Assembly: GCA_000002445.1 (NCBI GenBank)
Contig: AE017150.2
Coordinates: forward strand, 1 to 64,000
DNA length: 64,000 nucleotides
Direction of reading: 5' to 3'
From: Trypanosoma brucei
Taxonomy: Eukaryota
Shown here piece after piece: positions 10,101 through 60,540 of this stretch. Position 1 is the stretch's first letter, and every line of letters begins with the position of its first letter. The notes below the pieces were generated by a model. It saw nothing but the letters and a program-made list of their open reading frames with translations, searched no databases and was not told where the DNA came from. A program made the translations under genes and the position numbers.

Positions 10101-11830
10101 ATCACGATGATTACAGTGCTGCTTCACAACTTCAGCATAGGGGAATGGCGGAATCGTTTCAAATGCGGAACAAATAATGAGAGTCCAAATCTCCCTCTTA
10201 AATTCCCGTGTCCGCATAAACTGTATGCAGGTGAAACATTTCTTTCAAGGAAACTGTATTTACGAGACTTAATCCAAGGAGAGATTAGGAATGCAGATAC
10301 TTCATGCCTTCAATGAACAGTCGTACATCAGACCTGTCAACTCCATTAAGTGACTGAGGAGTTAACCTATTGTAAGGTGTATGGACATGGAGACATGGTT
10401 GGAGCAACCAACAGCCAGTATTCAGTACAGTTGGCTTATGTGAAACCAAAACATATGCATCCGTGTATGTTCAACCTGACAGCTTCGCGTACCCTTTTGT
10501 TAAGCTGTACGACACTCTTCCAGGTGTATACAACAAAATACAGTTATATGCATGACCTTGAGAATGAGGATGGTAGTCTACAGGAAGCATGCGAAACAGG
10601 GAAAATATATATTGAGCTGATCTGAATCCATTTGATGCAGAATGTAAGAGCGTTAACCCGGCTGATATTTTCGTATTAACCGACATACTAAAGAATGATT
10701 TAAGAAGCAGGAAAAAGTTGATCCAAACTGCATTTAGCCTGGAGTTATTTCCAATGCTCCTAGATAATATTGTGTATGATCCGTATGGGGGTTCATTACT
10801 TTTTGAGGGAGTATGAAGAAGGATGAGGAGCAGAAACTGTTCGGAAGATGACAATATTTACGATTCTTATTATTAGGTTGACATCCTTTTTGTGATGCCT
10901 TAACGGTTTAGTATGTATGAGTGCTTTACACTCGTTTTATTTGAACACAAACTGATGCATGAACAAATGCCCATTGCCAAGCTTCTTATAGAGATATTTC
11001 AATACCTGAAAAAGGGACCGGGACGCAAAGTTTGGGAATGGAATTTCCCCGCCCGTAACGCTGATTACATAAGACGATCAATCAACACATTTCCGCCTGT
11101 CCACAGTTAATCGGAAACCGTAGTGCCCATATGTCTCCCTAATTACTGTTGTCCCTTCAGTTTTCACAGTAGATGTTTCAATTGGTTTCTACGGCCGAGC
11201 TAAATAAAGCGTGTGTGTCATATCGTGGAGGTGTTTCCATGTGTCTTCGCTTTCCGTTTTGTCACTGCGTTTGGGCTCACGCAGTGACATTAATTGAAAA
11301 TTCAGGCCACTACCATAGATGGGTGGCTCGCGGAGAGAGTGAGGATTGGGATTATTCTAACGGCTTTGTGGTTGTGTGTCCCGTGCCTTTGGAAAATATT
11401 GCAGCCAATGAAAGGGAAGGCAAGTGTCACCTTGCTTTCCATGCTGCGACATCAATGCATCACGATTTTATGCTAGTTGCCCTGCGAGGGAAGGCCGTGA
11501 AGGCGAAGGTTAGCTTCCGGTTTAAGGAAATGTAGAGACTTCCTGATACTACTGTCAGAAACTACTGTTGCTGCGTGCTCCAGGCACTGGGTCAGTAATT
11601 CATAAATACAACAACGAGAATAAAATTAATCCCTTGTGGCTGCTAAGCGTGTAAGCAACTGAGAATAATAAACAGTATATTTTTGCCACACCTTATTGAT
11701 TTCTATATATATATACAAAACAACCTCATTACAATTATCATTTCTTTTGTGCCCAAAGGCTGCTGAATGAAGGTTAGGATTACTGACCATAACACATTTT
11801 GGCATGCACCTCAATTACTTCCTTATAACA

Positions 11831-22746: not shown

Positions 22747-23829
22747 TTAAGAGAAACATACATGCTGCACACACACACCCTCTACCGCAAACCTGACACG
22801 TAACTCCTTCAAACCGGGACAGCTCATCAAGTGCAGCGACATTTCTTCACAGTCGCCGCGTTGGCTGGTAACAGTGTGCTCTACCTTCATACCGTTCATC
22901 TTCTTTTGATGTAGGGTGAGGCCAGTTTTGCTAGCACACTGCCTTCCGCATGTCGGGCACACCAACATGGATGTGTTTGTATGCGGGGAATCAGTGGCAC
23001 GCAATTTTGTGCTTTTGCTGCATTTAAGCTCGACTCCCTCACCTTTGTGGAAAGCCTTACAGTGTCGGATGAGGGAGTCCCTGCAACTGAGCACTTTTTG
23101 GCACACACCACACTGCACCTCGCCCTTCCCCGGGACGTCAACGTTTTCCTCACGGGCACGCTTACGAGGGAATTGCACCAACACCACGGTACCGTCCTCC
23201 TTCACTATGCTTTTATGTTTGAATTTCTTGTGTAGTGACAGGGAAGAACGTGTACCGAAGCTCGCCTCGCACAGGTCACATTGAAACGGCAGCTTCCGTG
23301 TATCCTGAGAGGCTGGCGCTGCTGGGGCTCTACCATCTCCTTGCAATGAGTCTTCGTTCTCTCGCCCCCTTTTCACGCGGCAACTACCGCTGCCTATGCC
23401 ATGTATTGTTCTAAGGTGGTGAAATACTCGGCCTGGCACTGCGAATTTGGAGGCACAGAAGGTACAATGAAGCACCTGCGGTCTCATCGGGACTCGTGTG
23501 CTCGATGGTAGGGGAACGATCGCCACCACTGGAGGGGGCTCCGGGGGGATGTCCACTGCAGGTGTTGCATCGCCGTATTTGATCCTCCGGAGGGCATCAG
23601 CTCGCACAAAGCCGTGTTTGTTTACCATATGCGTTACAGCACTCGAGCGGCATTGGTATGTGGCATCACACTCCGTACATTTGGTCGGTTCGGAGGTTCT
23701 CTGAAGAGTGCGTGTCGCAACAGTTGGGGCTGTTTGTATTGTTGGTCCTATCGCTGCATGTTTCGGGTTACACCATCGGCACTGTGGAGGCACACTAGGG
23801 TTGATCTTCCGCACCCTCTTGAATTGCAT
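22747..23829 (-). CDS. ORF with five tandem C2H2 zinc fingers (C-x2-C-x12-H-x4-H), abutting the truncated RHS; possibly retroelement-derived (ingi/DIRE-like C-terminal domain) or a novel gene
   Basis: 361 aa from first ATG (23827-23829). The track start at 23886 is TTG and lies inside RHS-derived sequence. Fingers: CTECDATYQCRSSAVTHMVNKH, CTFCASKFAVPGRVFHHLRTIH, CDLCEASFGTRSSLSLHKKFKH, CGVCQKVLSCRDSLIRHCKAFH, CPTCGRQCASKTGLTLHQKKMNG. Confidence 0.4.
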   Translation of the reverse strand: MQFKRVRKINPSVPPQCRWCNPKHAAIGPTIQTAPTVATRTLQRTSEPTKCTECDATYQCRSSAVTHMVNKHGFVRADALRRIKYGDATPAVDIPPEPPPVVAIVPLPSSTRVPMRPQVLHCTFCASKFAVPGRVFHHLRTIHGIGSGSCRVKRGRENEDSLQGDGRAPAAPASQDTRKLPFQCDLCEASFGTRSSLSLHKKFKHKSIVKEDGTVVLVQFPRKRAREENVDVPGKGEVQCGVCQKVLSCRDSLIRHCKAFHKGEGVELKCSKSTKLRATDSPHTNTSMLVCPTCGRQCASKTGLTLHQKKMNGMKVEHTVTSQRGDCEEMSLHLMSCPGLKELRVRFAVEGVCVQHVCFS

Positions 23830-24570
23830 ACTGCGGAATACTGAAAGAGTTATATGGCCAACCCTTCTGCGAGGTGAGCACAGCAATCTCTAAATTACCG
23901 TGACGAGGCAGTGGGTCGCACAAGTCAAAAGGCGTGTGACTGACATTCACCTCCTCTTCTGTCCACAACTCGGGTTTGCCGTCACAATTACCCACTACCT
24001 TCATGCCAAGAGGTAAATCATTGTGACCCGACTCCACATAACCCCATGTCGCATTGTATATGGATTCATATACTCCTTTCAGTTCTGCACCACCAGCTGT
24101 TTGGTCAGCTCGTTCCCTTGCCTCTTTGGCAGTATCCAATGCCGCATCCAGCATTGCTCTCGCCCTGGGACCAACAAATTCCCTTATTTGCGCTTTTGCC
24201 ATCTCCTCCCATTGCTGCATGTCTTAAATTCTATTACTAGGAAGGTAAATAACTGCCCTCAGTAATTGAAACTCGTCAGTATCCTGTATATCCTCAAGAA
24301 TCTCGGCATCAACATTAATATATCTTCTGAGATTATTAACAAACACATCCATGGACACATTAACTGTGTCATACGTGTTTGAGGAAAACTGATTCAAAAA
24401 GTCATGCAGTTTTATTTCATCCAAACCCGCATAATCTTCCAGCAGCACATTTTCAATAGAGTTGTTAATTGATCAAGTTGGCCCTTTTTCGCCTCCACGC
24501 AGTCAATTCAAAAAATATATTGCCGCATGCAACCTATTACTATGGAAACGCCTTATTGAATTCCACACTT
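23780..24570 (-). pseudogene. RHS: RHS pseudogene: N-terminal ~230 codons only, with a premature TGA, truncated upstream of the P-loop at the retroelement hot-spot region
   Basis: ORFs 24224..24448 and 23795..24220 (-) match intact RHS N-termini (LLEDYAGL..., IREFVGPRARA..., LEIAVLTSQKGWPYNSFSIP). GPTW is replaced by GPT* (tgg to tga, ~24480). Nucleotide homology to the 35798 copy continues down to ~23785 and then stops. Confidence 0.75.
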
Positions 24571-31014: not shown

Positions 31015-32759
31015 TTAACTCATCATCATATTTCGAATCATCAGTGAAAGAGCTTGGCAACTGTATGATTCGATAACTCCAACATTTGCCTTCACTCTTA
31101 CAACCTTCACTAACTTGTCCGTAACTTCATTGTTCTTCCAGGCAGCCGTATGCTCAATAATATCATTATAGGAATATTCATCCGACTTCTTCATAGTTTC
31201 CAGCGCATCATGCACTCTTTTCAGACGCCATTCATAACAGCTTAAACAAAATATATATAACGAGGCAAAAGCCCAATTGGATTAATACGTCCCTCCACTA
31301 TTCTCCACTCATCTTCCATTTCCTTCCTCAATTCGTATCTTCTTCTGTTGGATACCTTTTCCCTTGTATGTATTGACAGTTTTTTCCATGCCACAAATGC
31401 CTTCATGTCACGCACATCATCGCAGTTTATAATAATTTGGCGGCCTCCCGTATTTGTAGTCCAGTCATCAAAGTGGGAACTATTCGGGGAAGTGAAAATA
31501 GTTACACTCCAAACATCAGAGGGAAGTTGAGTGTAAAGGTGCTGCATTGCGTACCTTATGTCCATAATAATGTGTCCTCTGTTTTCAAATTTCATTTTAT
31601 TTATGGCGTTGACCGCAGCTCTCAAATATTCGTACCGCACAACCCTCCCTCTTTCATCACCCTTTCTGTTATATATTAAGTAGGCGATCGTGTCTGTGAA
31701 ATATGCAACAACATCAAGCATTCCTTCATGGAAGTGAAGCAATGAATGAAGTAAAAATGATCCAAGGCCACATGATTTACCAATACCAGGTGTACCAATA
31801 ATAATATGTATCGGTGGGCCCTCAGCTGTTGCTTCCACCCACCATGCTTTCAGACCTCGTTGGATTATATACCACACGCGCATAATTTCACGACGGATAT
31901 ATACATGTTTAAATACTGCTTTGTGCCCCGTAGTGTAATCCAATGCAAACCTGTTGTATGGCCAACCCTTCTCCGAAGTGAGAACAAAAATCTCTAAACC
32001 ATTGGGTCTCTCCTCAATCTCTGCATCTACATCCGCAGGTTCAGGACTTACATCCACCTCCGCTTCGGTCCAAATCCGCTGTGGTTTTCCATCGAATATC
32101 TTCATTCCAAATGGCTCTTCATCATAACCCGACATCACATAACTCCATTTTGCATTATAAATGGAATCATAAGCGCCTTCAACTTCAACAGCACCATCAG
32201 CTGTTTGGGCAGCTCGTTTCCTTGCTTCTTTGGCAATGCGCAGTGCCCTGTCCAACTTTGTCGCTGCCACGGGACCAACAAATTCCCTTATTTGCGCTGT
32301 TGCATTTTCTTCCCATTGGTGAATGTCTTCAATCCTATTACGAGGCAGATAAATAACTGCCCTCAGTAATTGAAACTCATCAAGCCCCCGTACCCTTCCT
32401 AGAAGCCTGGCATTCACAATATAATCCTCCGGGCTCTGAACAAAAATGGGCATCCTAACATTTTCTGCTTCAGCCACCGCAAAAGTCCCGCCAACGAACT
32501 CCTGAATAAAGTCGTTCACTGTCATTTTACGCAAACCCGCATAGCGTTGCAGCAACACATCCCTCACCTTACTATTCATCGTCCATGTTAGTCCCCCTTC
32601 AGTTCTCTGCCGTATTTGTGGAGGCTGAGCAGCAGCAGCAGCAGGAGGCGGCGGTACATTTTCATCCCGTGGCCTCCTCACTGCTGCTCCAAAATTACCT
32701 GCCACTTGTTGGTTTGCATTATTTCTTCGTCGACCCCCACCTCTTCGACGTCTTGACAT
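31015..32759 (-). pseudogene. RHS: RHS pseudogene: frameshifted and C-terminally truncated mosaic copy
   Basis: 505-aa ORF 31242..32759 has an N-terminus like the 1683 copy (MSRRRRGGGRRRNNANQQVAGNFGAAVRRPRDENVPPPP) but a core like the 46167 copy (IIGTPGIGKSCGLGSFLLHSLLHF...DVVAYFTD). After a frameshift, ORF 31015..31215 continues ...KLVKVVRVKANVGVIESYSCQALSL, which is RHS-like, then ends. About 270 C-terminal codons are missing. Confidence 0.8.
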
Positions 32760-38167: not shown

Positions 38168-38254
38168 TGCTAATGCCCTATTGTCTCGTTGTCTAGCAAC
38201 TGCAAAATTAAAGTAACGTATGAGGAAAATAATAGTGTGTAAATAATGTAACAC

Positions 38255-41135
38255 AATATCAAATGTAATAGAGCAAGATAATGTTTATTCACTATAGTTT
38301 GTATAATATGATATCATAATGTATTTGGTATTGAGAGGAACAATTTCAAAATATAGCAGCTGTAAATAAATATTTCCCTTGCTTCATCATCATGTTCTAA
38401 AAATAATTAATTTCCTGCATCATTCTTTCTAAACCATATATAATATGGAAACAAAAAATATTACTGCCTCATATACATGCATCAACACTACGTATATATA
38501 ATCAATATTTAAAGAGAGTCAAATTCTATCAATTAAAATCAAGTAAAACAAAAAACAAAAAAATTTATGGATATTAATGAAGCGAAGAAAAAGAGTATCG
38601 GCACAACACATAGATATATACACACATGAATACACACCACACAATTGCTTCTTTATTTATCCTCCCCATTTTTACAATTCATAATATTCACTTGCATTGA
38701 ATAAACTCATTGAAAATATAAATCACCTATCCCCTCCCCCGTGTATTCACTTACTTCCAAAGGAGAATATTAAATAATGTCTGTAGGACAGGTAAAAAAA
38801 AAAAACTGATAGTCTTTTTGCATCAGATAACCAGAGAGTATTTCTGTTTACTTTCATAATAAACAAAAACATTCTTTCACCTTCAGTTAAAATAAAATTG
38901 ATTTACTTGCCTCCTTACTGTTCACAACCATCAACAACTAATTCAGCCCCACATATTCACATGTATTTTATGTGCCATCGTTGTTTGATTTATTCACACA
39001 TCTTCCATGATGGTGATGATACAACATATGAAAAATTATTGAAATACAATTAATACAATTATTTGAGGAACCCATGAAAGACTATCATAACATATCTTTT
39101 ATTTTCCCTCCTTTCATTTACAAAAATTAAATATGTAATGAGACAATTCCCTTTCAGTACGTGTCCACACTTATTGTATCATCATTGTAAGTTTCCTATT
39201 GCTCACATACACAGAGCTATTGGAACAACAAAAACATAAAACAACACATCTAAACAACTTGATAAAATATATAATAAATAAATAAAGGTAATAAAGAGAA
39301 TGAGCGTGAACAGACAGATAATAAAATGAAACACGTCTCGTACTTTCCTTATAAATATTCAATAGTTGGCGGATTACAAATAAAAACAATTACACATTAT
39401 AGAAAGGAAAGGATATAATTACATTATACACCTGCATGTGGATATGTAACAGTGAGTCATAGTAGAAATAAATTGTCTAAACACAATAGTTATGGAAGAT
39501 AAAATAATTCAAAATATCAATAATATTATTCTATCAACATTCCCTTCCTTCTCCATTAAGTTTTCAATGGATTTAAATAATAATTCACATAATCCCATAC
39601 ATATGTTATGACGGGTATTGCATGCAGTACAATTTAAAGGAAGTGAAACTCATATAACATTTTCAAAAAAAAAAGGCATTGAATGGTTGTTTGCTACCAT
39701 CAATTACATTTCCAATGCCTAATTACACTTTTGTATGCATGAAGGAAGTTACTGATGATAACTTTGACATGCTCGAGAATCCATAACACAAAGCGACTGC
39801 TGCATGCAATAAAAAATAAAAATATAAATAACATCCGAATTCATTTACTGACAGATGAGTGCAATTCATTCATCCAAACTTCATAGCTGTAAACATAAAC
39901 TCGTTGCTGCCAATAGGAAATAATCCCGCATAAATATTGAGTATCTGAAAATGATAGCAACGGGTTTCCATTTTTGAAATATATGCATAAACTACATGAG
40001 GTATATGAAGCCATATTGGTAAAGTGTCACTACACATGTTGCAATTTACTATCAGAAGTGTCTGCCTTATTTTATTTCTTGTGTTACTGTAACTCATGAG
40101 TATTATTCATTATTCTTTACAATACAACTGTAAGTCATTTTGCATTTTTTTATATTTCCTTATTCTCTCATACTGGAAGTATTCCACATATGAGATTCCT
40201 CAATATCGTTCACAAATAAAAATAATTTTATTTACTTCTGCATTCAGTTTCTTGTGCAGCAGTGTGTGTACTAATCATCCATAAAGTTTTTAATTTGCCA
40301 AATACATCATTACGAAACTATTTTCATACACATGCACAAACAAACCGTTGGGACAATATCTTTGAGGAATTTCCTTCACTATATTTGCAGTTCAGTAGTA
40401 ATTAAAATACACTTTTTGTATAATTCAACACATGGTGGAATTGCAAAGAAATGTGATGGTACTTATAATCAATAAGTTCCCAATTTTCCTCACATGGTCT
40501 CTTTTCATGCCTTTCCACACATATATAATTCACAGAGAATTACTGCAATATCCTTCATATGCTTTCAGGATTCCATATGTCACAATACAAATAATATACA
40601 TTTACACATATATATAATTTGGACAGCATATTGCTTAACATATAAATTATCACAAACCTATGATATTACACTCCTCCTAAGAATAATAGAATCAAATCAT
40701 TTCTATTTTGCATCATTACATGAAGCTTTGGAAAAGAAAAAAAAAGAATCAAACAAAAGGTAATGTAAAGAACACAGTTTCATAATACAGATTATAACTT
40801 GTTTGTGAATTTCAGATGCAAACACAAAATGTTCAAACAGTAAAACAGTAAAGGATAGTACTGGTGATGTAAGCACAAATTAATCAAAAATAGAAACATA
40901 AATAAAATTGAAACTTATAAAAACACAAATATATATGATACAAATATTTACCACATATTATAATTCGCCACCCTCACACTTGAATTAGAAAGAGTACATA
41001 ACACACATATGTGGTAAAACTAATACAACTCGAGTATACGTATGTGCCATCTTCATAACATAATCATTCTAATATTTACTCAGTATGTGTGTCTGTGTGT
41101 GTGTCTGTGTGTGTAGAAATGATGAAATGTAATTG
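38255..41135. repeat. RHS 5'-flank repeat, copy 3
   Basis: Collinear with 4240-7165, including the ggtggaattgcaaagaaatgtgatggtacttataatc block. Confidence 0.8.
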
Positions 41136-42480
41136 TAACAAATCAGGCACAACACAAACAAAATATATGAATTATATTATTCTCTAAAAAGTAGAAGAAT
41201 AAAAATCAAGAAATATTACGCAGCTTTTCTCACAAGTAATTTTGTTTCTGTATATAACACGACAGCTGACAACATTAAACTCTCAATTCCATAATATCTG
41301 ACACCTGAAGTGATAATTAGCAGCGGATGCCTTTAACAAAAAACAACAGAAATAACAACATCAAAGCATGTTTTGAAAGCTTAAATAAACTTCCTCATGG
41401 ATAAACCATTTGTACGAAGTTTGAGTGCCAAGTTGGAGGAACAAAGAAAAAATAAAAAAAGAAGAATTAAATGGTAAAACAATTGCGTGTGATATAACTA
41501 AAGGATTTGTTAGGCACTACACTCATTAAACTCCAGTTTCATAAAAATACTGCAAGGCATAATATTTACTGCTTTACCGGTTATGTGCCTCCAGCAAGCA
41601 ATAATAAATACTTCGAGTATTATTCAATTTCTGATGCTATGAAGTGTGTAATAAATTAGTGCGGGAGCAAAATATTCAAATGTTGGTGTTCACTTCAAAT
41701 TATAACCTCTGCACTATGAATGTCTCTCGATGTTTATAATTTGAGAGAGCAAAAGTGACGGCGCTATTACTTATTTCTTCCAGTTCATGAATACATACAC
41801 ATATTTATACATATATAATCAGAGGTGACACGCAAAAGCGTTTAAACATCAGGCATGAACATCTTTCCATTCAAAGTAAGACGATACAATAAGGTAAGTT
41901 TAGGATGAAGTGAAGGTATCATAATGTTAATATCTTCCTTCAAGCGGAGGATTCAATTCAAATAGGCGTACTTCACAAACAATAGTAAAATAACTGAGAA
42001 AACTTATATCACTTAATCGTTATTTCCTTCAATTCTTATTTTGAATCGCTCTGTACCGTCACACCTTCAATAAAGTATATAGTGACGCATTTCATACATC
42101 CTCCCTAAGCCATCTCTCATAGTCATTAGCTCTCAACAGCAATAATAACAAATAATGAATAGTTTAGTTCTTACCTTCCCTTTTTTACTACCCACAAGAA
42201 AGATATACGAAATAATTATCATACTGAATAAACAGTAGGCGTTCCTCATTATCCTACACAAAATATGAATTGAAACGATAATTTACTAACGGAGCGGAAG
42301 TGTCTGAAAGCGTCTTTAACTCGTCTCCTGTGCGGGGCGAAGAGGGTTGTGTTGTGTGGGCTTTCTAAAAATTTCACTCTCTTGCAGACAGCTGTGTAAA
42401 TAAACGGGGAGTACAGGTGTGTTTAGAGAAAGATAACCGTACAAAATAATACTCTGCACTCCTATGACCAAAACAACCAT
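41130..42480. repeat. 1.35 kb repeat also present at 50790-52170
   Basis: aattgtaacaaa(t/c)caggcacaacacaaacaaaatatatg...ggggcgaagagggttgtgttgtgtgggctttctaaaaatttcactctcttgcagacagctg is shared; the copies diverge after ~42500 and ~52195. Confidence 0.8.
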
Positions 42481-43149
42481 TCATAATGCAGGCTTTCAAA
42501 ATACACGATATCATCTCAACAAATTGTAATTTTTTTTTGCATAATGTCCTCCAGAAGACAGAACAACAGATGACACAGTTAAATAACACATGACAAACAA
42601 GGAATATAACCGCACATCCTCAGCAGTAAATGTTTCAGTTTCTCCTTTAAAAAAAAAAAAGAAAAATAAAACAGTTTCACACGTGTGGTCCAAAAGCTGC
42701 ATCAGCCAATACAATATCTTGACAGCTTGTCACGCAGTCTTGCCTCAAGAAGAAAATAAATCATTCATCTCTGCTTTCCTTAGTTGATAAATGAGATCCC
42801 ATGCTGTGTTAACTCCCGTCTCCATTCAAAAAGTTGACTCAACGTTATGACGAGGCAGTGACCAAAAACAATCCAAATGCAATTCTAAATTTCTTCATAT
42901 TACGTTTTCAGTTTTATTACACATTTCCCCAACCATTCCAAGTACTAACAGGAATAATTTGGTTCTATAATAATGCATGTGTTTTCTACAGCTCTTTCAT
43001 TTTGTTATGATCCGCACAAAAATTATATATGTGGTTGTTGATTCGTCCTGTCAATCAAAGTAACAATCATAATAATTAATTTTCCCCTTTTCTTCATTTT
43101 TTCTATTAGCACATGTGCACCTTGGTGAGATCACTTTCACTCATTTGCA

Positions 43150-45100
43150 CTGATTGGTCAACACTATTTAGTTCGTTATTCAACACACTCCCTTACATGT
43201 CCTCCTCTCACCATTTATAACCCACACGAGCAGCATCAAATATAAATTGTGAAGAGGTATGAGATCACAAGGAGCTCGCTCTCATTGAGAAGGTTGGATG
43301 CGTCATATATATATAATCATGTAATCCCTTTCCATTTCAACAATACGCAAACCTCAACTGCGGAATCGACTTTGAATGAGTTGACCTCGTCAGCATGAAA
43401 CGGGGCCCGCCAAGTGGCATGAACATTAATCTTATCAGTAAACATGTGTTTGAGGTGTTGGTAATAAATGGGGTCAAAGAAAACATAAGTGCGTATCATC
43501 TTCCCCGTTATGCCCGAGTGGAAAATATACATCATCTCCGTGAAGATAATTGTATCCATGTTGTATCAATTCCTCATCCAGCTCTTCATCCTTATCAGTA
43601 CCCAAACGAAGTGCCATCGCCTAACTTTTTCCGTGAATGCACTCACACCTTTGAGCTAACGAGTTCCAGCAACTTTGCAACTGTCATACGGCTCGGGAAT
43701 CCATGAGAATTTATGATCATATCTGTGCAAATGCCTTTACTCATTGAAGGGCATGTTAACACACCATCAGTCATGAGATCCACTACTCCCTCCAGCCAGC
43801 GCCGTGAGGAAAACTTATTTCAGACCTCGGGACCGCGAACTTCTCTCGTAGTAACTTTAACTTTATTGTTCTACATCCATTGATATATCCGAGTCACTGG
43901 AAGGTGAGAGATGAACACATTTGGTCCACAACAGCAGGCTGAGGGTATTTATTATATTCAAGAAAATTAGGTCTTGGTTCCTTGAAAGGCACGGGAGTGT
44001 ATTTGTTTACAAAAATATCAAACTGACAAACAGCCGCACCTTTACTACTGGCAATACCATCACTACTAAAGGCATTGTGTCTCGCAACATTCCAATCTGT
44101 TGGAAGAATTATATCATACATACTCACCGTTGGGAAGTCTTTCCAGTTCCATCTCATGCTTACAAAAAACAACATAGCACCCATAGCCACAATTGAGCGA
44201 ACTGCGGTTGTGTACACCTTTGCGTCTTCAATATTGTAACCTCTATAGCTCATAATGCATACCATCGTATTAATTCCTGCACCTAATATTTCGTAGTTGC
44301 TTAGGTTCATAGCCTTCGTCCGGCAAAGGGACAGTTGAGAGTAAGCACTCAACATAAGTACTGTGTCCATTTCTAATGTACTGATTATACGCAATGGTTC
44401 CAACAGCTTGCTTGCCCATGGCTGACTGTAATGTGTTTCGTGCAAATTGATTGTGATGTGGAAAGGAAAATAATGCTAGCGACAACTCCAAGTGAGCCTC
44501 GTGTACTGCTCAATGTCTTTGTGGTGAACTGCTATAAGAGAGTCATTCGCTTCGTCATATAAGTCAATGAATTCCACAACAAGCCCTCAACTAAAATATC
44601 GTTAATCGATCACTTGCTTGAACTCAAGTTATCCAGATGTTAAGAAATTACAGCGTGTTTCCCATCGCAAACGAAAACATACAACCTCACGATCCTTCCG
44701 CCAACACAAACAATTTGAACACTCTTCTGACGGTCATTTATCGCAATTGAAACGTAAGGATGCAAGCGGCCTGTGTTCCTCAGGGTTCGTAATACATCCC
44801 GACACAAACGGCTCATGTATCGATAAACGCACATCAGCACTTCATTGAGGAAAACTGTGTAGTATTTAAGAAATTCGTTAAGACTGATATAATCTATTTC
44901 CTCCACTCCAATATTGTACGCATCCGCGTGTAAACAAACAAATTATCCATGTCTAGTGTTACCTGACTAAGAATGGCAAAATTATTAACCAAACAGCAAC
45001 AACTTTCACCCTCTGGGGTATCGCAAGGAGGGATATACACCATTCCCCATTGACTTGAATAGAGAAATAATGATCCGCACATGTGGGTCAATAGACGAGG
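43150..45100 (-). pseudogene. Pseudogene fragment of the second-largest subunit of a multisubunit DNA-directed RNA polymerase (RPB2/RPA2/RPC2 family), C-terminal half, with multiple frameshifts and stops
   Basis: Minus-strand ORFs 44894..45091 (YSSQWGMVYIPPCDTPEGESCCCLVNNF), 44270..44491 ([27 protein letters not shown]), 43894..44445 (MDTVLML...[23 protein letters not shown]...AVVDQ) and 43317..43559 (GKMIRTYVFFDPIYYQHLKHMFTDKINVHA) match, in colinear order, conserved RPB2 blocks ([22 protein letters not shown]; [22 protein letters not shown]; [52 protein letters not shown]). One frameshift is pinned to ~44355 (...aat cag tac att aga a|atg gac aca...). A PSRMTVAKLLE block lies in another frame at ~43640. 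Confidence 0.7.
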
Positions 45101-46166
45101 CCATGGTCACTCCACTGCTGCCGTTACATATGATCACTGCATGGTTTTTATATCAATGTTGATGATGATGTGGGATTTGCTGCTGGAGGCAACCAACAAC
45201 ATAAGTTTAAGGTTGCCACGTGTGAAGAGAGGCCCAACTGCCAACCCTCAACCAGGATAACAGAAGTGATTATAAGGAAAGAGAAGACAACATATCATAG
45301 TATGTTTACCCACCGACAAATAACTGAAGAAAGAGAGAGAGAGAGAAAGAGAGGAAAATAGAAACAATCACGTCACCTGCTGCGCGTCTGCGAAGAACAC
45401 CATCAAGAGCTGCTCCATAACTGCAACCATAACTAACATGTATAATATAATTATAACAGCTCGTATATGAAACAGCACATCCAGTAACTGCTTCTAATGT
45501 TTGCATATTTCACTCCGTCACAATCTCTCTCCCATGACACCTACTGGAAACACAACTCAGAGGAGTTATAGTTGAGGCATGTTTCCAATACGCCCTCTCC
45601 ACCACGGATGGCAAAGAAGCAAAAAGTACCATTACATTTTTGTTCCTTTTATCATTGGTCTATAGATCCCTATCTCTACACGGATGGAAAATTTAGATTG
45701 TATAAATGAAAAGAAGATGTGAAGAGTTAGTGTAGTATAATCCAATTCTTTAGTTAGTAACAGCACAAATGAAAACAAAACGTTACAATGTTTTCTTACG
45801 TCCGTCGATAACATTATTTCTGTCTTTCTCTGTGCCCCTTAAGATTACGATGTGGCTTAACTCCAGTTACGCGTTAGCCGATAAAATACTACTTTTGCTA
45901 TTCCTTAGTCGTCTTCATTTCCACTTCCCTTCCCTCACCTCCGGCACTCAAGTGAATTATCACGTCCCTTTCCTTGCAGCAGCTGCGGAAGCTCATTACT
46001 GGTGGACAAACAACACACTTGGAATGGCGCAACGGGGCACTTCAAGTTGTGATCATAAACCAAACCAGGTACAAAAACGAACCCGCTCCTCCTAATGGTT
46101 GGTTCCCTCCTCTTTAAGCATTTGTCACTCTTAACAGCAACGCCGTGCACTGCTAAAAAAAAACAA

Positions 46167-48743
46167 TTACGCGTCTTCACCTCCTTCCACGTCGTCCATT
46201 GCTACGTCACCTCGCCCCTCCACAACCTCTTCACGAGCGCGCCGCCTTCCCGCCAGTCCCATCAATGCTGGTGCATCTCGCATGCCAGATTCTCGGCGAT
46301 ATGCCTGAATTAATTCCGCTTGCATCGTTTCCTTGAGTGTCACTTGGAATTGGTCGATGGATTCCCAAAATGTTTGCGGTCCCAGAGGACCTCCGTCCTC
46401 ACCTCCAGCTCTATCGGGAGGTCCTTCGCAAAGTTGCCTGCGGGTTATCGTGCCACCGTTAACCGAATTAATGTATATCATTTCCCAAGCCATGTTACCC
46501 GAAAACGTGTTCCAGTCGGAAAAATAACTTGCTATGTTTTCTCGGAACTTCTGCACCTTATCCGTAGTGGTGGGGTGCCTCTCCGACTTGGTTACTTGTA
46601 AAAGCACAGCTATATTTGGAGTGGTCGGTGGCGCTGTTCCGTCACGGTTTCTCCTGAGCCGCCCCTCAACGAAAAAAAAGCCATCCACCACGGGTTCATT
46701 GCCTGTGGCAGGGAGGTAGAGAACCATGTGTTCACAGCGTTCAATTGGTCGCTGTTGGGCCGCAGGTAAGGCCTTCTGCCCAATGAGTCTCAACTGCTGA
46801 GGAGCCATGTCGTTCAGTATGCTTCGACGGTCAGCTATTTCTCTGCCTCGTCGCAGGTATTTCAAGTTGTTTGCGATAACTTTAAAAACTCGAGGGAAAA
46901 GAAGCGAAAGCAACGCAAGCCTTTCAAAAGCGTTGGCCCCGACACTCTCGTCTGACATTATAATCTCCTTTGACGTCATCTCCACAATAAGAATGCCAAA
47001 TAATGTGCAAATCAACATATTCCAAATGTTGACAGAAAGCGATCTGCAACGATATGATTCGACATTGACAGTCCCAGAGCTTACCCGCACTATCTTCACC
47101 AATTTGTGCGTTACCACATCATTTTGCCAGTCCGAAGATTTTCCAATAATCTTATCATATTTCTTTCCGTTTTCGCTATCGAGCTGCCTAGCTTCTTTAC
47201 GCACACATTCCAGTCGTGCGTCATAGTCAGGGGCTGAGAAAACAAAACGAGGCAATGGACCAACCATGTCAATGCGCTCTTCCACAATTTTCCACTCGCT
47301 TTCAAGCTCCTCCATTAACTGCTGCCTCGTTTTGTCGCGCGGCGCCTCCTCCGAAAGCACACACAGCTTTTTCCATGCCACAAATGCCTTCATGTCGCGC
47401 ACATCATCACAGTTTATAATAATATGGCGGTCTCCCCTATTCTTTGCCCAGTGCTCGTAATGTGCCGTATCCGGAGAAGTGAGGATAGTTACACCCCAAA
47501 AAGGTGAAGGAAGATTCTGCGGTGGAGTTTCATTCTTTTCACTGATATCAACAATTACGTGCCCCTTCTTTTCGTACTTTACTGCATCTATGGCCTTAAC
47601 AGCAGCTTTCACGTGTTCATACTGCACAACCCTTTCCTCTTCTCCGGGTTTCTTGTTATATATGAGGAAGGCGTTCCCGTCTGTGAAATATGCAACAACA
47701 TCAAGCATTCCATCATTGAAGTGAAGCAATGAATGAAGCAAAAATGATCCAACTCCATACGACTTTCCAATACCAGGTGTACCAATAACAATATGTATCG
47801 GTGGTCTGTGGGCTGTGTCATTCAGCCACCATGTTTGCAGCCCTCGTTGGATTATATACCACACGCGCATGATTTCACGACGGATGTATACGTGGTTGCA
47901 AATTGCTCTGCATTTCTTCCTTAAGCACAGTGAAAACCCGTTGTATGGCCAACCCTTCTCCGAAGTGAGAACGAAAATCTCCAAACCATTGGGTCTCTCC
48001 TCAATCTCTGCATCAACATTCGCAGGGTCAGGAGTTATATCCACCTCCGCTTCGGTCCATATGTGCTGTGGTTTTCCATCAAACACTTTCATGCCAAGTG
48101 GCTCTTCATCATAACCCGACATTACATAACTCCATTTTGCATTATAAATGGAATCATACACTCCTTTCAGTTCGACAGCACTAGCAGCTGTTTGAGCAGC
48201 TCGTTCCAATGCTACATTGAGTGCATCATTCAACATGTTAGTGACAATAATCCAAAGCCGCTCTCCATCTCTCAGTCCACGAATATTCACCTGTAACCCG
48301 GCCTTTACTACCTCATCTGCTTGTTGCCAGCGCTGAAGATTCAATATTCCCTCTCTGAACAACAGGGGGTAAGCAGTAGCAAAAACTTGGTACACTTGAT
48401 ACTCTGTTGTCGCGAATATTCGATTGAGCGCATTAACGTCATTAATATACTCTTCAGGTTCCAGTACGAACACAAACATTGATACATTATTTTCTTCATT
48501 CACATTATATCTTCTGCCAAAATTACGCCTCAAAAAATCATTCAACGTCACATTTTCAGGATGAGCCCGACCATTCAGCAAAACTGCTTCAACGCTGCTG
48601 AAAAGACCCCATCGTGGTTGGTTATTATTCTCCACTCGTTGCTGGACTGCTGGAGGTTCCGCATCGTTACGCGCAGCCTCCTCATTTTCTCGTCTCCTTC
48701 CCTCAATGTCACCCCTTCCTTCAATAGGAACCTGTTGATTCAT
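46167..48743 (-). CDS. RHS: RHS protein, 858 aa, intact
   Basis: ATG at 48741-48743. IGTPGIGKSYGVGSFLLHSLLHF, LEIFVLTSEKGWPYNGF, VYIRREIMRVWYIIQRGL, WEMIYINSVNGG. N-terminus MNQQVPIEGRGDIEGRRRENEE. Confidence 0.9.
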   Translation of the reverse strand: MNQQVPIEGRGDIEGRRRENEEAARNDAEPPAVQQRVENNNQPRWGLFSSVEAVLLNGRAHPENVTLNDFLRRNFGRRYNVNEENNVSMFVFVLEPEEYINDVNALNRIFATTEYQVYQVFATAYPLLFREGILNLQRWQQADEVVKAGLQVNIRGLRDGERLWIIVTNMLNDALNVALERAAQTAASAVELKGVYDSIYNAKWSYVMSGYDEEPLGMKVFDGKPQHIWTEAEVDITPDPANVDAEIEERPNGLEIFVLTSEKGWPYNGFSLCLRKKCRAICNHVYIRREIMRVWYIIQRGLQTWWLNDTAHRPPIHIVIGTPGIGKSYGVGSFLLHSLLHFNDGMLDVVAYFTDGNAFLIYNKKPGEEERVVQYEHVKAAVKAIDAVKYEKKGHVIVDISEKNETPPQNLPSPFWGVTILTSPDTAHYEHWAKNRGDRHIIINCDDVRDMKAFVAWKKLCVLSEEAPRDKTRQQLMEELESEWKIVEERIDMVGPLPRFVFSAPDYDARLECVRKEARQLDSENGKKYDKIIGKSSDWQNDVVTHKLVKIVRVSSGTVNVESYRCRSLSVNIWNMLICTLFGILIVEMTSKEIIMSDESVGANAFERLALLSLLFPRVFKVIANNLKYLRRGREIADRRSILNDMAPQQLRLIGQKALPAAQQRPIERCEHMVLYLPATGNEPVVDGFFFVEGRLRRNRDGTAPPTTPNIAVLLQVTKSERHPTTTDKVQKFRENIASYFSDWNTFSGNMAWEMIYINSVNGGTITRRQLCEGPPDRAGGEDGGPLGPQTFWESIDQFQVTLKETMQAELIQAYRRESGMRDAPALMGLAGRRRAREEVVEGRGDVAMDDVEGGEDA

Positions 48744-50800
48744 TTCACTCTCTGAATAATAATCTTAATTGAGTGCGTTGTGTTATTTCCTTTCTTTGTA
48801 ACATAAATTTTAAAAAAGGGATAAAAGATGAGAGAATTTAAAATAGATACATTTCTAAACCAAAGCAAATATACAATCAATGAATATCAGGAATTAATAT
48901 GGCAGGTGGAAACTATTTATTGAAATTAGAATTCAATACAAATCTTATCATGTGTTAAGAACTCACAGCAACTTAAGCACAAATAAGGTATGACAGTACG
49001 AATAGACATTTCTGTTTGGAGGAAAGCTCAAACAACAATTCCCATTCAGAGCACACAATCATTCCAGAAAAAAAAAATATACTTAGATATATTTATTTAT
49101 GAAAAAGCAAAAAAAATAAATGTGGCATTGCCATAAAAAACAGCATATAATAGGTTTAGTGATAAATCATGCAAAACGTAGAATCCTCGGGTGCATACAG
49201 AAAAGTGCCTTACTTACCTTACAAAATTAAAAATATACCAAAAGTAAAAATAAATATAAAACATTATCTTCACAAATCAAACCAGACACGTATTAAGCAA
49301 GAGAAAATAATTCATATAATCTCATACATATGTTATGATGGGCATTGCATGCAGTACAATTTAAAGGAAGTGTAACTCATATAACATTTTCAAAAAAAGG
49401 TATTGAATGGTTGTTTGCTACCATCAATTACATTTCCAATGCCTAATTACACTTTTATATGCATGAAGGAAGTTACAGATGATAACTTTGACATGCTCGA
49501 GAATTCATAACACAAAGCGACTGCTGCATGCAAATAAAAAAATATAAATATAAATAACATCCGAATTCATTTACTGACAGATGAGTGCAATTCATTCACC
49601 CAAACTTCATAGCTGCAAATATAAACTCGCTGCTGCCAATAAGAAATAATCCCGCATAAATATTGAGTATCTGAAAATGATAGCAACGGGTTTCCATTTT
49701 TGAAATATATGCATAAACTACATGAGGTATATGAAGTCATATTGGTAAAGTGTCACTACGCATGTTGCAATTTACTATCAGAAGTGTCTGCCTTATTTTA
49801 TTTCTTGTGTTACTGTAACTCATGAGTATCATTCATTATTCTTTACAATACAACTGTAAGTCATTTTGCATTTTTTTATATTTTCTTATTCCCTCATACT
49901 GGAAGTATTCCACATATGAGATTCCTCAATATCGTTCACAAAATAAAAATAATTTTATTTACTTCTGCATTCAGTTTCTCGTGTAGCAGTGTGTACACTA
50001 ATCATCCATAAAGTTTTTAATTTGCCAAATACATCATTACGAAACTATTTTCCACAAATAAACAAACAAACATTCCATTGGGACAATATCTTTGAGATAT
50101 TTCCTTCACCATATTCGCAGTTCAGTAGTGATTAAAAGAAACTTTTCTGTATAATTCAACACATGGTGGAATTGCACAGAAATGTGATGGTACTTATAAT
50201 CCATAAGTTCCCAATTTTCCTCACATGGTCTCCTTTTTATGCCTTTACATCCTTATATAATTCACAGAGAATTACTGCAATTTCTTTCATATGCTTTCAG
50301 GATTCCATATGTCACAACACAAATAATATATACATTTACACATATATATAATTTGGACATAATATTGCTTAACATATAAATTATCACAAACCTATGACTT
50401 TACACTCCTCCTAAGAATAATAGAATCAAATTATTTCTATTTTGCATCATTACATGAAGCTTTGGAAAAGGAAAAAAAGAATAAAACAAAAGGTAAAGAA
50501 CACAGTTTTTTAATACAGATTATAACTTGTTTGTGAATTTCAGATGCAAACACAAAATGTTCAAACAGGGAAACAGTAAAGGACGTTACTGGTGATGTAA
50601 GCACAAATTAACCAAAAATAGAAACATAAATAAAATTGAAACTTATAAAAACACAAATATATATGATACAAATATTTACCACATATTATAATTCGCCACC
50701 CTCACACTTGAATTATAAAGAGTACATAACACAAATATGTGGTAAAACTAATACAACTCGAATATACATATGTATGTATGTATGTGTGTGTAGAAATGAT
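48744..50800. repeat. Composite flank: 48744-49200 matches 27573-28030 (type-Y RHS 5' flank); 49300-50800 matches family A (5600-7165)
   Basis: ttcactctctgaataataatcttaattgagtgcgttgtgttatttcctttctttgtaacataaat at 48744 versus the same at 27573; the later part is collinear with A-repeat copies. Confidence 0.75.
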
Positions 50801-53800
50801 GAAATGTAATTGTAACAAACCAGGCACAACACAAACAAAATATATGCATTATATTATTCTCTAAAAAGTAGAAGAATAAAAATCAAGAAATATTACGCAG
50901 CTTTTCTCACAAGTAATTTTGTTTCTATACATATATATATACATATATAACACGACAGCTGACAACATTAAACTCTCAATTCCATAATATCTGACGCCTG
51001 AAGTGATAATTAGCAGCGGATGCCTTTAACAAAAAACAATAGGAATAACAACATCAAAGCATGTTTTGAGAGCTTAAATAAACTTCCTCATGGATAAACC
51101 ATTTGTACGAAGTTTGAGTGCCAACTTGGAGGAACAAAGAAAAAATAAAAAAGAAGAATTAAATGGTAAAAGAATTGCGTGTGATATAACTAAAGGATTT
51201 GTTAGGCACTACACTCATTAAACTCCAATTTCATAAAAATACTGTAAGGCATAATATTTACTGCTTTACCGGTTATGTGCCTCCAGCAAGCAATAATAAA
51301 TACTTCGAGTATTATTCAATTTCTGATGCTATGAAGTGTGTAATAAAGTAGTGCATGAGTAAAATATTCAAATGTTGGTGTTCACTTCAAATTATAGACT
51401 CTGCACTATGAATGTCTCTCGATGTTTATAATTTGAGAGAGCAAAAGTGACGGCGCTACTATTTATTTCTTCCAGTTCATGAATATATAAATATATTTAT
51501 ACATATATATAATCAGAGGTGACATGCAAAAGCGTTTAAACATCAGGCATGAACATCTTTCCATCCATTTAAAGTAAGACGATACAATAAGGTAAGTTTA
51601 GGATGAAGTGAAGGTATCATAATGTTAACATCTTCCTTCAAGCGGAGGATTCAATTTAAATAGGCGTACTTCACAAACAATAGTAAAATAACTGAGAAAA
51701 CTTATGTCACTTAATCGTTATTTCCTTCAATTCTTATTTTGAATCGCTCTGTACCGTCACACCTTCAATAAAGTATATAGTGACGCATTTCACACATCCT
51801 CCCTAAGCCATCTCTCATAGTCATAGCTCTCCACAGCAATAATAAAAAATAATGAATAGTTTAGTTCTTACCTTCCCTTTTTTACTACCGACAAGAAAGA
51901 TATACGAAATAATTATCATACTGAATAAACAGTAAGGTTTCCTCATCATCCTACACAAAATATGAATTGAAACGATAATTTACTAACGAAGCGGAAGTGT
52001 CTGAAAGCGTCTTTAACTCGTCTCCTGTGCGGGGCGAAGAGGGTTGTGTTGTGTGGGCTTTCTAAAAATTTCACTCTCTTGCAGACAGCTGCGTAAATAA
52101 ACGGGGAGTACAGGTGTGTTTAGAGAAATATAACCGTACAAAATAATACTCTGCACTCCTAAGTCCAAAACCATTCATAATGCAGGTTTTCATTAAAAAA
52201 ATAAGTAGCAGTAGTAGTAGTAAGGAGAAAGCTATTGTTTTTTCTCACTCCTGCTGCCACGTACATCATGCGTAATACAACAGTTTCCATTTATTCTATG
52301 GTAGATTTTTTCACATAGCAAGGGATACTCGGAATTGCTGTATCACTTTCGTTGTCCCAGCCATACTGTCTGCTTTTCATGGTTAAACTAAAACTCCAAT
52401 GAAATCACATTGTTGTGTCATCTTTTGCGAGTCACCAATAATGGTTGTGCCCCACATTCCTCCATGTTCGTAACTATTTTGTTTCCACGACATTTAACCA
52501 CGTCATGTGCCTCACACTGATAAATATGTTGCATATCCATGTTTGAGTCCTCAATCTTTCAGGGGTCGCCTGCTGCAGCCTCACGAGAAGTGCATGTCCT
52601 GAAAAAACTCTTGTGATGGTGTGTAAAATTCCAGGAGTCCATTTTATTAACTGATGGGGAGTCGATTCAAATTCACTAATTCCTCATTTTTGCTAACGTA
52701 TCGGAACCCCAGCCGAATATCTTCAGGCAACTTCACTTGAGAGAGGAATGACTTTAGATCAAACAATGCCACCGACTGGTCATGGAGAGTATTTAAATAC
52801 TGGGAAAAGTGACCCAATGGGGCATATGCCTCATAATCATCCCTGCTCTTTTTAGCCTTTGGTCATGCAATAAACCAACACCTTCTTCCAAATCTGTGTT
52901 TCCTCCATCACAAATAATGGCACACAACCCATCCTGTCGTATGTCTCTCTGAAACTGGGCCAATGATACGCGGCTGCTTCATTATTTGGGCATACTTTTC
53001 TACAATGCGCAATTCTGACTCCTTCTTTGATACTTTCTCTCTTTCTTTCTTTCTGCATCATCTGTGCTATTCATGATGCTCCAAACCTCATCAAATCGTT
53101 TACTCGCTGCTTACATCATCCTCTGTCAAATCCACGGAAGGGAAATCATTCCCACATTCATTTCCTATTGGAGAGGTGAAGTCTTTTTTTTTTCTCTTCC
53201 CGTGAGGTCACCTTCATTTCCCCTTGTGAGTGTCAAGGAATGCTGTGCAATCGATAATTTGGGAAGATATTCACCGTTATAAGTCCCGGCTTCCCTCACA
53301 CTGAGGCCGCACATTTCTTTCAATTGTATCTTACATCAAAAACATTAAAAGAACCGGCTTGCTTACGGAAGCTGTCACACATCTGAGATACCACACTGTG
53401 CCTCGTGGAAGTTCTATTGTGTAGATATGCTTTCCCAATTGTATTAATAATATGTTGTCAATGTCGTGTTCCATTGCAACTACTTCCGCTGCGCGTGTCA
53501 GCAGTGCTCTTCTCTTTATGGGATGTTCTATCATTACGTATGGTCTTTTCAGTATGGTGTCACTTTTCCCCTTTGTGGTAATGGCTATGAACTTCTTCCT
53601 CTTTCCTCCAGAGGTTCCTCCCTATGACTTTTCTCACACTGGCAATATCCTTTTCCCAGTTGATATTTACGCATCGTGTGACTCTGTGGGTATCGCTTTT
53701 GAATTTCTTTGGAAGGTTCCCTCGAAAAAAAATCCACTATTGAGGCTTGCCTGCCGTGTGAGTGTGGTATAACATTTTTCTCTTTTTTTTTGGAGCTGTG

Positions 53801-58340: not shown

Positions 58341-60540
58341 AACTCTCTTAATATTATTAACTTAACTTCCTTTCCTTTTCTTTTTTCTCTGAAATTATAA
58401 ATAACTGAAGTAAAATAATAGATAAGAAAACAATAGCGGGTGAACAGTGTAACATAATATCAAATGTAATAGAGCGCGTTAATGTTTATTCACTATAGTT
58501 TGCAGAATATGATATCATAATGTATTTGGTATTGAGAGGAACAATTTCAAAATATAGCAGCTGTAAATAAATATTTCCCTTGCTTCATTATCATGTGCTA
58601 AATATAATGAACTTCATACATCATTTCTTTAACTATGAATAACATGCAGACAAAAAATATTACTGCCTCATATACCTGCATAAACACTTCGTATATATAA
58701 TCAATATTTAAAGAGAGTCAAATTCTATTGATTAAAATCAAGTAAAACAATAAACAAAAAATTTATGGATATTAATGAAGCGAAGAAAAAGAGTATCGGC
58801 ACAACACATAGATATACACACACATGAATACACACCACACAACTACACAACTGTTCCACTGGAGTTTCCTCACTTCTGTCAATACGTAACATTCACTTGC
58901 ATTGAATAAACTCATTGAAATATAAATCACTTATCCCCTCCCCCGTGTATTCACTTACTTCCAAAGGAGAATATTAAATAATGTCTGTAGGACAGGTAAA
59001 AAAAAACTGATAGTCTTTTTGCATCAGATAACCAGAGAGTATTTCTGTTTACTTTCATAATAAATAAAAACATTCTTTCACCTTCAGTTAAAATAAAATT
59101 TAATTACTTGCCTCCTCATTGTTCACAACTATCAACAACTAATTCAGCCCCACACATTCACATGTATTTTATGTGCCATCGTTGTTTGATTCATTCACAC
59201 ACCTTTTATGATAGCGATAATACAACATATGGAAAATAATTGGAATAAAATTAATACAATTAATTGAGGAAACCGTAAAAGATTATCATAACATATCTTT
59301 TATTTTCCCTCCTTTCATTTACACTGATTAATTATGTAATGAGACAATTCCTTTTCAGTACGTGTCCACACTTATTGTATCATCATTGTAAGTTTCCTAT
59401 TGCTCACATACATAAAGTTATTGGAATAACAAAAAAATAAAACAACACATCTAAATAACTTGAAAAAATATATAACAAATAAAGGTAATAAAGAAAATAA
59501 GCGTGAACAGACAGATAATAAAATGAAACACGTCTCGCACTTTCCTTATAAATATTCAATAGTTGGCGGATTACAAATAAAAACAATTACACATTATAGA
59601 AAAGAAGAGATATAATTACATTATACACCTGTATGTGGATATGTAACAGTGAGTCATAGTAGAAATAAATTGTCTAAACACAATAGTTATGGAAGATAAA
59701 ATAATTCAAAATATTAAAAATATTATTCTATCAACATTCCCTTCCTTCTCCATTAAGTTTTCAAATGGTTTCAAATAATAATTCACATAATCTTATACAT
59801 ATGTTATGATGGGTATTGCATGCAGTACAATTTAAAGGAAGTAAAACTCATATAACATTTTCAAAAATAGGTATTGAATGACTGTTTGCTACCATCAATT
59901 ACATTTCCAATGCCTGATTACACTTTTATATGCATGAAGGAAGTTACTGATGATAACTTTGACATGCTCGAGAATTCATAACACAAAGCGACTGCTGCAT
60001 GCAATAAAAAATAAAAATAAAAATAACATCCGAATTCATTTACTGACAGATGAGTGCAATTCATTCACCCAAACTTCATAGCTGCAAATATAAACTCGCT
60101 GCTGCCAATAGGAAATAATCCCGCATAAATATTGAGTATCTGAAAATGATAGCAACGGGTTTCCATTATTTAAATATATACATAAACTACATGAGGTATA
60201 TGAAGCCATATTTGTAAAGTGTCACTACACATGTTGCAATTTACTATCAAAAGTGTCTGCCTTATTTTATTTCTTGTGTTACTTTAACTCATGAGTATTA
60301 TTCATTATTCTTTACAATACAACTGTAAGTCATTTTGCATTTTTTTATATTTTCTTATTCCCTCATACTGGAAGTGTTCCACATATGAGATTCCTCAATA
60401 TCGTTCACAAAATAAAAATAATTTTATTTACTTCTGCATTCAGTTTCTCGTGTAGCAGTGTGTACACTAATCATCCATAAAGTTTTTAATTTGCCAAATA
60501 CATCATTACGAAACTATTTTCATACACAAACACAAACACA
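58341..60540. repeat. RHS 5'-flank repeat, copy 5
   Basis: Collinear with 4173-6350 and with copy 2. Confidence 0.8.

Follow-up and report, generated by a model that had tools for sequence, protein, structure and literature searches.

A heavily decayed fragment of an RPC2 gene among the RHS genes of chromosome 2 in Trypanosoma brucei

The locus and its surroundings

We analysed the first 64,000 nucleotides of contig AE017150.2 of Trypanosoma brucei (forward strand; this whole stretch is called the window below). Seven of its open reading frames (ORFs) are exactly proteins of chromosome 2 of T. brucei brucei TREU927, namely XP_951473, XP_951476 (LRRP) and XP_951477 to XP_951481. The part of the window with which we are concerned, a degenerate gene fragment (the relic) and what surrounds it, is composed as follows.

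38225 to 42498, minus strand: 5'-flanking block common to the RHS units, which bounds the unique stretch on its low-coordinate side (self-megablast)
42499 to 43220, minus strand: unique spacer downstream of the relic, with an A-rich tract at about 43105 to 43080 and one copy of a 12-nt repeat (sequence, Pfam, alignments)
43221 to 45076, minus strand: RPC2 pseudogene fragment, about 1.86 kb (frameshift-aware alignment, tblastn, Pfam, phmmer against PDB)
45077 to 46166, minus strand: unique spacer from the RHS stop codon to the relic, with no recognisable coding relic (Pfam in six frames, RPC2 alignments)
46167 to 48743, minus strand: intact RHS gene directly upstream of the relic and on the same strand (Pfam RHSP, RHS_N and DUF7578; exact match to XP_951479 / AAL14355.1)

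When the window is compared with itself by megablast, the 5' block of the RHS units is found at 38225-42498, 48736-52192, 4258-7147 and 58426-60538, these copies being 92-96% identical, and no other part of the window repeats the interval 42499-46166. The protein XP_951479 shares no more than 28-35% identity with the RHS proteins encoded elsewhere in the window (blastp). Since this gene diverges so far from the others and the interval next to it has no second copy, we read 42499-46166 as the 3' flank proper to XP_951479. The original prediction had seen here a unique insert between two RHS units: the uniqueness within the window holds, but the interval is rather to be called the 3' flank, specific to its subfamily, of the gene at 46167-48743. 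The relic lies inside this flank and shares the strand of the RHS genes. In Pfam, neither the relic nor its unique flanks carry RHS domains (RHSP P-loop, RHS_N), and an exact look-up of ten ORFs in or near the relic returned no entry in the protein collection.

Elsewhere in the window, a 120-aa ORF at 11173-11535 (plus strand), before the LRRP gene, matches Pfam DUF1181 from end to end (E 5e-75). At 22747-24567 (minus strand) an RHS_N ORF fragment (23795-24220) is directly followed by a C2H2 zinc finger ORF of 379 aa (22747-23886), and the whole looks like an RHS pseudogene interrupted by retroelement-derived sequence. The truncated RHS ORF of 505 aa at 31242-32759 (minus strand), whose P-loop domain ends at position 180 of the 312 positions of the profile, is probably another RHS pseudogene. 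Between 7150 and 11100 the G+C content is raised (0.40-0.49), with a strong excess of A over T at 8-9 kb; several ORFs of 90-130 aa in this interval have no Pfam match. A short TGTGTGTCTGTG tandem repeat at 41086-41114 lies at the junction of two differently related blocks (39579-41045 and 41094-42498) and may be a recombination joint.

Parent gene and anatomy of the relic

The relic was mapped by a dynamic programming alignment, tolerant of frameshifts, of reference proteins against the DNA. Read on the minus strand from 45076 to 43221, it yields about 605 codons of the second-largest subunit of an RNA polymerase, in the correct order. The separate ORF pieces match the Pfam RNA_pol_Rpb2 domains 3, 4 and 6 collinearly, with E values from 3e-4 to 5e-13 (3e-4 for domain 3, 1e-11 for domain 4, and 2e-6 to 5e-13 for four successive parts of domain 6). 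In the frameshift-corrected translation, domain 6 covers 366 of the 373 positions of the profile (6-371) with an E value of 1e-68, and domain 4 has an E value of 3e-10. The RPB2-type motifs quoted by the original prediction were all found again on the minus strand, where it had placed them, in a three-frame translation of 42400-46200.

That prediction had left the parent open and had proposed a comparison among the paralogues of Pol I, Pol II and Pol III. Searched against the PDB chains with phmmer, the corrected translation scores 381 bits with human RPC2 (E 1e-112) and 372 bits with yeast RPC2, as against 252 bits with archaeal Rpo2, 240 with yeast RPB2 and about 140 with the RPA2/A135 subunit of Pol I. 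A translation stitched together roughly and compared with all PDB chains already ranked the paralogues in this way (E 5e-87 and 5e-83 for human and yeast RPC2, 3e-54 for RPB2, about 1e-25 for Pol I), and the correction of frameshifts widens the lead of RPC2 over RPB2 and Pol I. In a collection of 5.8 billion proteins, the named entries among the 120 best matches are all RPC2 except one archaeal subunit B, the other entries being uncharacterised. Judged by these comparisons, the parent of the relic is the second-largest subunit of Pol III, RPC2 (C128). An origin from RPB2 of Pol II was rejected, given 240 bits against 381 and 372 for RPC2. A match by chance or by low complexity was likewise rejected on the E value of 1e-112 obtained with human RPC2; the original prediction had named non-collinear or low-complexity matches as grounds for abandoning it, and what we found instead are collinear domains.

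The nearest relatives among the matches listed are kinetoplastid: a protein from a Logan contig (P0001) and the proteins of Trypanoplasma borreli, T. rangeli and Angomonas deanei. The closest reference is the C-terminal part (434 aa) of the RPC2 of T. rangeli, which aligns to the relic over 382 codons, with 68.1% identity, so that this value and the identities of 66.6% with T. rangeli, 59.5% with Angomonas, 60.3% with P0001 and 51.2% with Trypanoplasma found in a comparison of all four are to be read as distances to these references and not to the RPC2 of T. brucei itself. In the 50%-representative protein library, no match to the relic exceeds 60% identity. As the relic is nearer to T. rangeli than to Angomonas, P0001 or Trypanoplasma, it derives from the RPC2 gene of a Trypanosoma.

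Aligned to P0001, the relic corresponds to residues 324-927 (45076 to 43221 in the window, 59.5% identity, 20 inserted and 7 deleted codons). This is equivalent to residues 474-1080 of the 1128 of Angomonas RPC2, and 471-1084 of the 1133 of human RPC2. The numbering used for Angomonas is that of the full-length gene, which we read directly from contig LR877148.1 (L002, 7916-11302); there it forms a single unbroken ORF of 1128 codons, of which the public annotation holds only the last 433 (P0038). The parts of the relic that can be recognised are the following.

44933 to 45076, minus strand: first segment, end of Rpb2 domain 3, SQWGM..PCDTPEGES..LVNNF (Pfam PF04565, E 3e-4)
44577 to 44930, minus strand: Rpb2 domain 4 segment with two in-frame stops, GVEEIDY...LRTLRNTGRLHPYVSI...GGRIVRLYV (Pfam PF04566, E 1e-11)
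43385 to 44491, minus strand: Rpb2 domain 6 (hybrid-binding region), in about nine frame segments (Pfam PF00562, E 1e-68, corrected translation)
43221 to 43383, minus strand: last recognisable stretch, GLR..EMERD...LLNE...C.SCG (frameshift-aware alignment)

Altogether there are 14 in-frame segments separated by 13 frameshifts, and six in-frame stops, whose first bases are at 44642, 44612, 43822, 43645, 43356 and 43238. Earlier, four ORF pieces in different frames had been described: the frames do differ, but the number of pieces was too low. A frameshift placed at about 44355 exists and is located at 44368, and the PSRMTVAKLLE block reported near 43640 falls within the segment 43864-43601. The homology ends within the C-terminal zinc-ribbon motif.

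Decay of the copy and loss of both ends

Between 28 and 31% of the residues that are invariant in kinetoplastids are altered in the relic. The proportion is 29.7% for the 387 positions at which P0001, Angomonas and T. borreli agree, and again 29.7% for the 236 of them which are also identical in three other eukaryotes. Because the amino acid is invariant, the ancestral base at codon positions 1 and 2 is fixed, and it can be compared directly with the base present in the relic: at these positions of the invariant codons 13.6% of the bases are substituted, which corresponds to a Jukes-Cantor distance of 0.15. The substitutions are strongly biased, 64 going from GC to AT and 12 from AT to GC, with G to A and C to T predominating. 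The decay is uniform, and invariant positions are altered as often as expected under neutrality. Such a pattern is what long neutral decay leaves in a sequence, and it excludes a functional gene as well as sequencing error.

The block order of the relic is perfectly collinear with that of RPC2, as it would be in a second RPC2 gene, functional or recently inactivated, whose frameshifts were sequencing errors or were somehow bypassed. We give this practically no credence. An intact full-length reading frame with the invariant residues of the catalytic core is absent from the relic: it has 13 frameshifts and six stops, some 470 N-terminal and some 48 C-terminal codons are lacking, and about 30% of the universally invariant residues are replaced. 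As for errors of sequencing, the window gives seven reference proteins exactly, from which we take the quality of its sequence to be high. The functional paralogue was therefore rejected on its frameshifts, stops, missing ends and altered invariant residues, and the same defects bear out the original description of a non-functional fragment.

Neither the N-terminal codons of RPC2 (about 470) nor the last ones (about 48) could be detected beside the relic, at the level of protein or of DNA. In protein-to-DNA alignments, the N-terminal 335 residues against 45040-46200, and the last 60 or so residues against 42400-43260, scored no higher than shuffled queries. Nucleotide alignments of the relic flanks with the genes of T. 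rangeli, Angomonas and P0001 also remained at the level of shuffles; as a positive control, an adjacent stretch of 180 nt within the relic reached a score of 73, where shuffles gave at most 28. The full Angomonas protein, aligned to the whole window, has no match outside the relic and shows no N-terminal homology, and a six-frame Pfam scan of both unique flanks gave no credible match. On these alignments the relic is an internal fragment, truncated at both ends. This modifies the original estimate of the C-terminal 600 codons or so: the size (about 605 codons) and the assignment to the C-terminal half were right, but the last 48 codons or so are absent.

A long polypyrimidine tract with an AG after it, at about 45366-45324 on the minus strand, lies between the RHS gene and the relic, some 250 nt upstream of the latter, and resembles a signal for trans-splicing and polyadenylation. 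Such a tract with its AG is the usual RNA-processing signal in trypanosomes.

As judged from its reading frames, the relic cannot encode a protein, and we infer that it has no present role. Trypanosome genes are transcribed polycistronically; since the relic is oriented as the RHS genes are, it is probably carried along passively when the RHS polycistron is transcribed, and would then be spacer or UTR in the RNA. It could also be imagined that the relic is a regulatory pseudogene, whose sense or antisense transcripts would give siRNAs, or a non-coding RNA modulating the expression of RPC2 or of the RHS genes. The relic does lie inside an RHS array; in T. brucei more siRNAs come from RHS and ingi sequences than from any other source, and some pseudogenes yield siRNAs as well (PMC3447711; PMC3683921). 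However, a survey of the procyclic form found siRNAs accumulating at just two annotated pseudogenes, Tb927.5.290 and Tb09.160.3400, neither of which is on chromosome 2 (PMC3447711). Scans of the whole window for Rfam families and for tRNAs gave no match, and a uniform decay biased from GC to AT, reaching invariant positions at the neutral rate, speaks against any constraint. We therefore regard a regulatory role as very improbable.

Origin of the fragment and comparison with known systems

A repeat search with a shuffle control found an exact direct repeat of 12 nt around the relic.

45070 to 45081, no strand assigned: copy of ATGATCCGCACA at the 5' edge of the relic
43007 to 43018, no strand assigned: second copy of ATGATCCGCACA, about 200 nt past the last RPC2 homology

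Such a repeat might be taken as the target-site duplication of a processed pseudogene, a 5'-truncated RPC2 cDNA inserted by the ingi/RIME machinery. The first copy abuts the start of the robust homology and has its partner downstream, and a 12-nt repeat meets the boundary of the relic in only 1.9% of block shuffles; on the other hand, some exact 12-mer repeat occurs somewhere in 42% of the shuffles of the region. RHS genes are known hot spots for the insertion of ingi/RIME, elements that are abundant in RHS arrays. An A-rich tract (43105-43080) is also present downstream, but it is about 60 nt away from the second copy of the repeat and not adjacent to it. The length of the repeat agrees with the target-site duplications of the ingi clade (ingi/RIME), which are of 12 bp (PMC3820030). 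Nevertheless, what is expected of a processed pseudogene, the 3' end of an mRNA followed by poly(A), is absent at the relic: the last 48 codons or so and any 3' UTR are undetectable in protein and in DNA, and the downstream repeat lies only some 200 nt past the last homology. Moreover, at a decay of about 14%, the probability that all 24 bases of the two copies survive intact is about 3%. We hence consider retroposition unlikely, and its specific version, in which the relic would be an ancient ingi-mediated retrocopy of RPC2 truncated at its 5' end, flanked by a 12-bp target-site duplication and deprived of its 3' end at a later time, quite doubtful. If this were true, it would mean that the LINE machinery of trypanosomes mobilises housekeeping transcripts in trans into RHS arrays.

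The original prediction had proposed either ectopic recombination or retroposition. The missing 3' end and poly(A) lower the standing of a classical retrocopy; as both ends of the relic break inside coding sequence, and neither the 3' end of an mRNA nor a poly(A) next to it is present, a capture at the DNA level (or a larger duplicate since overwritten) is favoured. The relic is a dead internal fragment of RPC2 in the 3' flank of an RHS gene, and we find it probable that it was captured as DNA from the functional gene and then decayed neutrally over a long period. In this reading, part of the functional RPC2 gene would have been copied into the recombination-prone RHS array by ectopic recombination or by a capture of fragments associated with repair; alternatively, a larger RPC2 duplicate may have had both its ends erased by later rearrangements of the array. 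The captured fragment would afterwards have decayed for long without selection. Its divergence along a single lineage, about 15%, is greater than the 4-8% of pairwise divergence between the repeated RHS blocks of the window.

The position of the functional gene can be anticipated from synteny. The genes of Angomonas follow one another as BRCA2, ASF1, a gene without a name, PHO4, DOT1, IPI3 and RPC2, and the T. brucei identifiers are Tb927.1.640 for BRCA2, Tb927.1.630 for ASF1A and Tb927.1.570 for DOT1B. By this synteny, the functional RPC2 of T. brucei should lie on chromosome 1 beside DOT1B, ASF1A and BRCA2, at the low-numbered end of the chromosome core, which we take to border the RHS/LRRP cluster of chromosome 1. 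The intact LRRP gene of the window (XP_951476, 11937-16118, plus strand) is 90.8% identical to an LRRP of chromosome 1. The RHS1-type protein XP_951480 (55836-58340, minus strand) is 94% identical to two RHS1 proteins of chromosome 1 and 83% identical to the copy at 1683-4172 (minus strand) of the window. That it is closer to the copies of chromosome 1 than to its paralogue in the window, together with the identity of the LRRP, points to exchange between the RHS arrays of chromosomes 1 and 2. It is thus plausible that RPC2 left a fragment here because the gene would border the exchanging cluster of chromosome 1. Relics of the neighbours of RPC2 in Angomonas (IPI3, a 370-aa protein and RFC) were not found in the window. 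With both ends of the relic breaking inside coding sequence and homology into the neighbours of the parent gene absent within the window, nothing positively shows a segmental duplication at the DNA level.

The relic was not mentioned in the literature that our searches returned; TriTrypDB may already have a pseudogene entry for it. Taken alone it matters little, being a further degenerate piece of a gene in one repeat array of a reference genome curated for a long time. It is of modest use as a historical marker, since it is unique and old (about 0.15 substitutions per site) and lies in an array that otherwise keeps its units 92-96% alike. As it comes probably from a gene bordering the RHS cluster of chromosome 1, it could help to date and orient the exchanges between the RHS arrays of chromosomes 1 and 2. 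Its substitutions also allow the neutral mutation spectrum to be estimated locally, and this is strongly directed from GC to AT.

Finally we must place the relic among known systems. It resembles RPC2 / C128 (POLR3B, Ret1 in yeast) by its collinear Rpb2 domains 3, 4 and 6 and by its nearness to the kinetoplastid RPC2 proteins, and differs from a functional RPC2 in having no open reading frame, no domains 1 and 2 and no C-terminal end, with about 30% of the invariant residues altered. With the LINE-mediated processed pseudogenes it shares a 5' truncation and a 12-nt repeat having the length of an ingi target-site duplication, but it lacks the mRNA 3' end and the poly(A) at the downstream repeat, and the repeat is too well preserved for its age. 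A loosely comparable case is known in Leishmania major, where LmjF.02.0680, a truncated copy of the RNA polymerase III subunit C82, was once considered a pseudogene; its origin is ascribed to recombination between chromosome ends (PMC11894013). Like the relic, it is an additional, incomplete copy of a Pol III subunit gene in a trypanosomatid; unlike the relic, it keeps an open reading frame of 501 aa (PMC11894013). The closest likeness in form is with the non-processed pseudogene fragments of RHS and subtelomeric arrays, as the relic is truncated, frameshifted and placed among RHS genes and RHS pseudogenes. It departs from duplicated pseudogenes in that flanking homology to the parent locus could not be shown, and from the typical pseudogenes of these arrays (RHS, VSG, ESAG, LRRP) in that its parent is a single-copy housekeeping core enzyme, which is less usual. 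For the rest, it is an ordinary duplicated and fragmentary pseudogene, with no sign of function.
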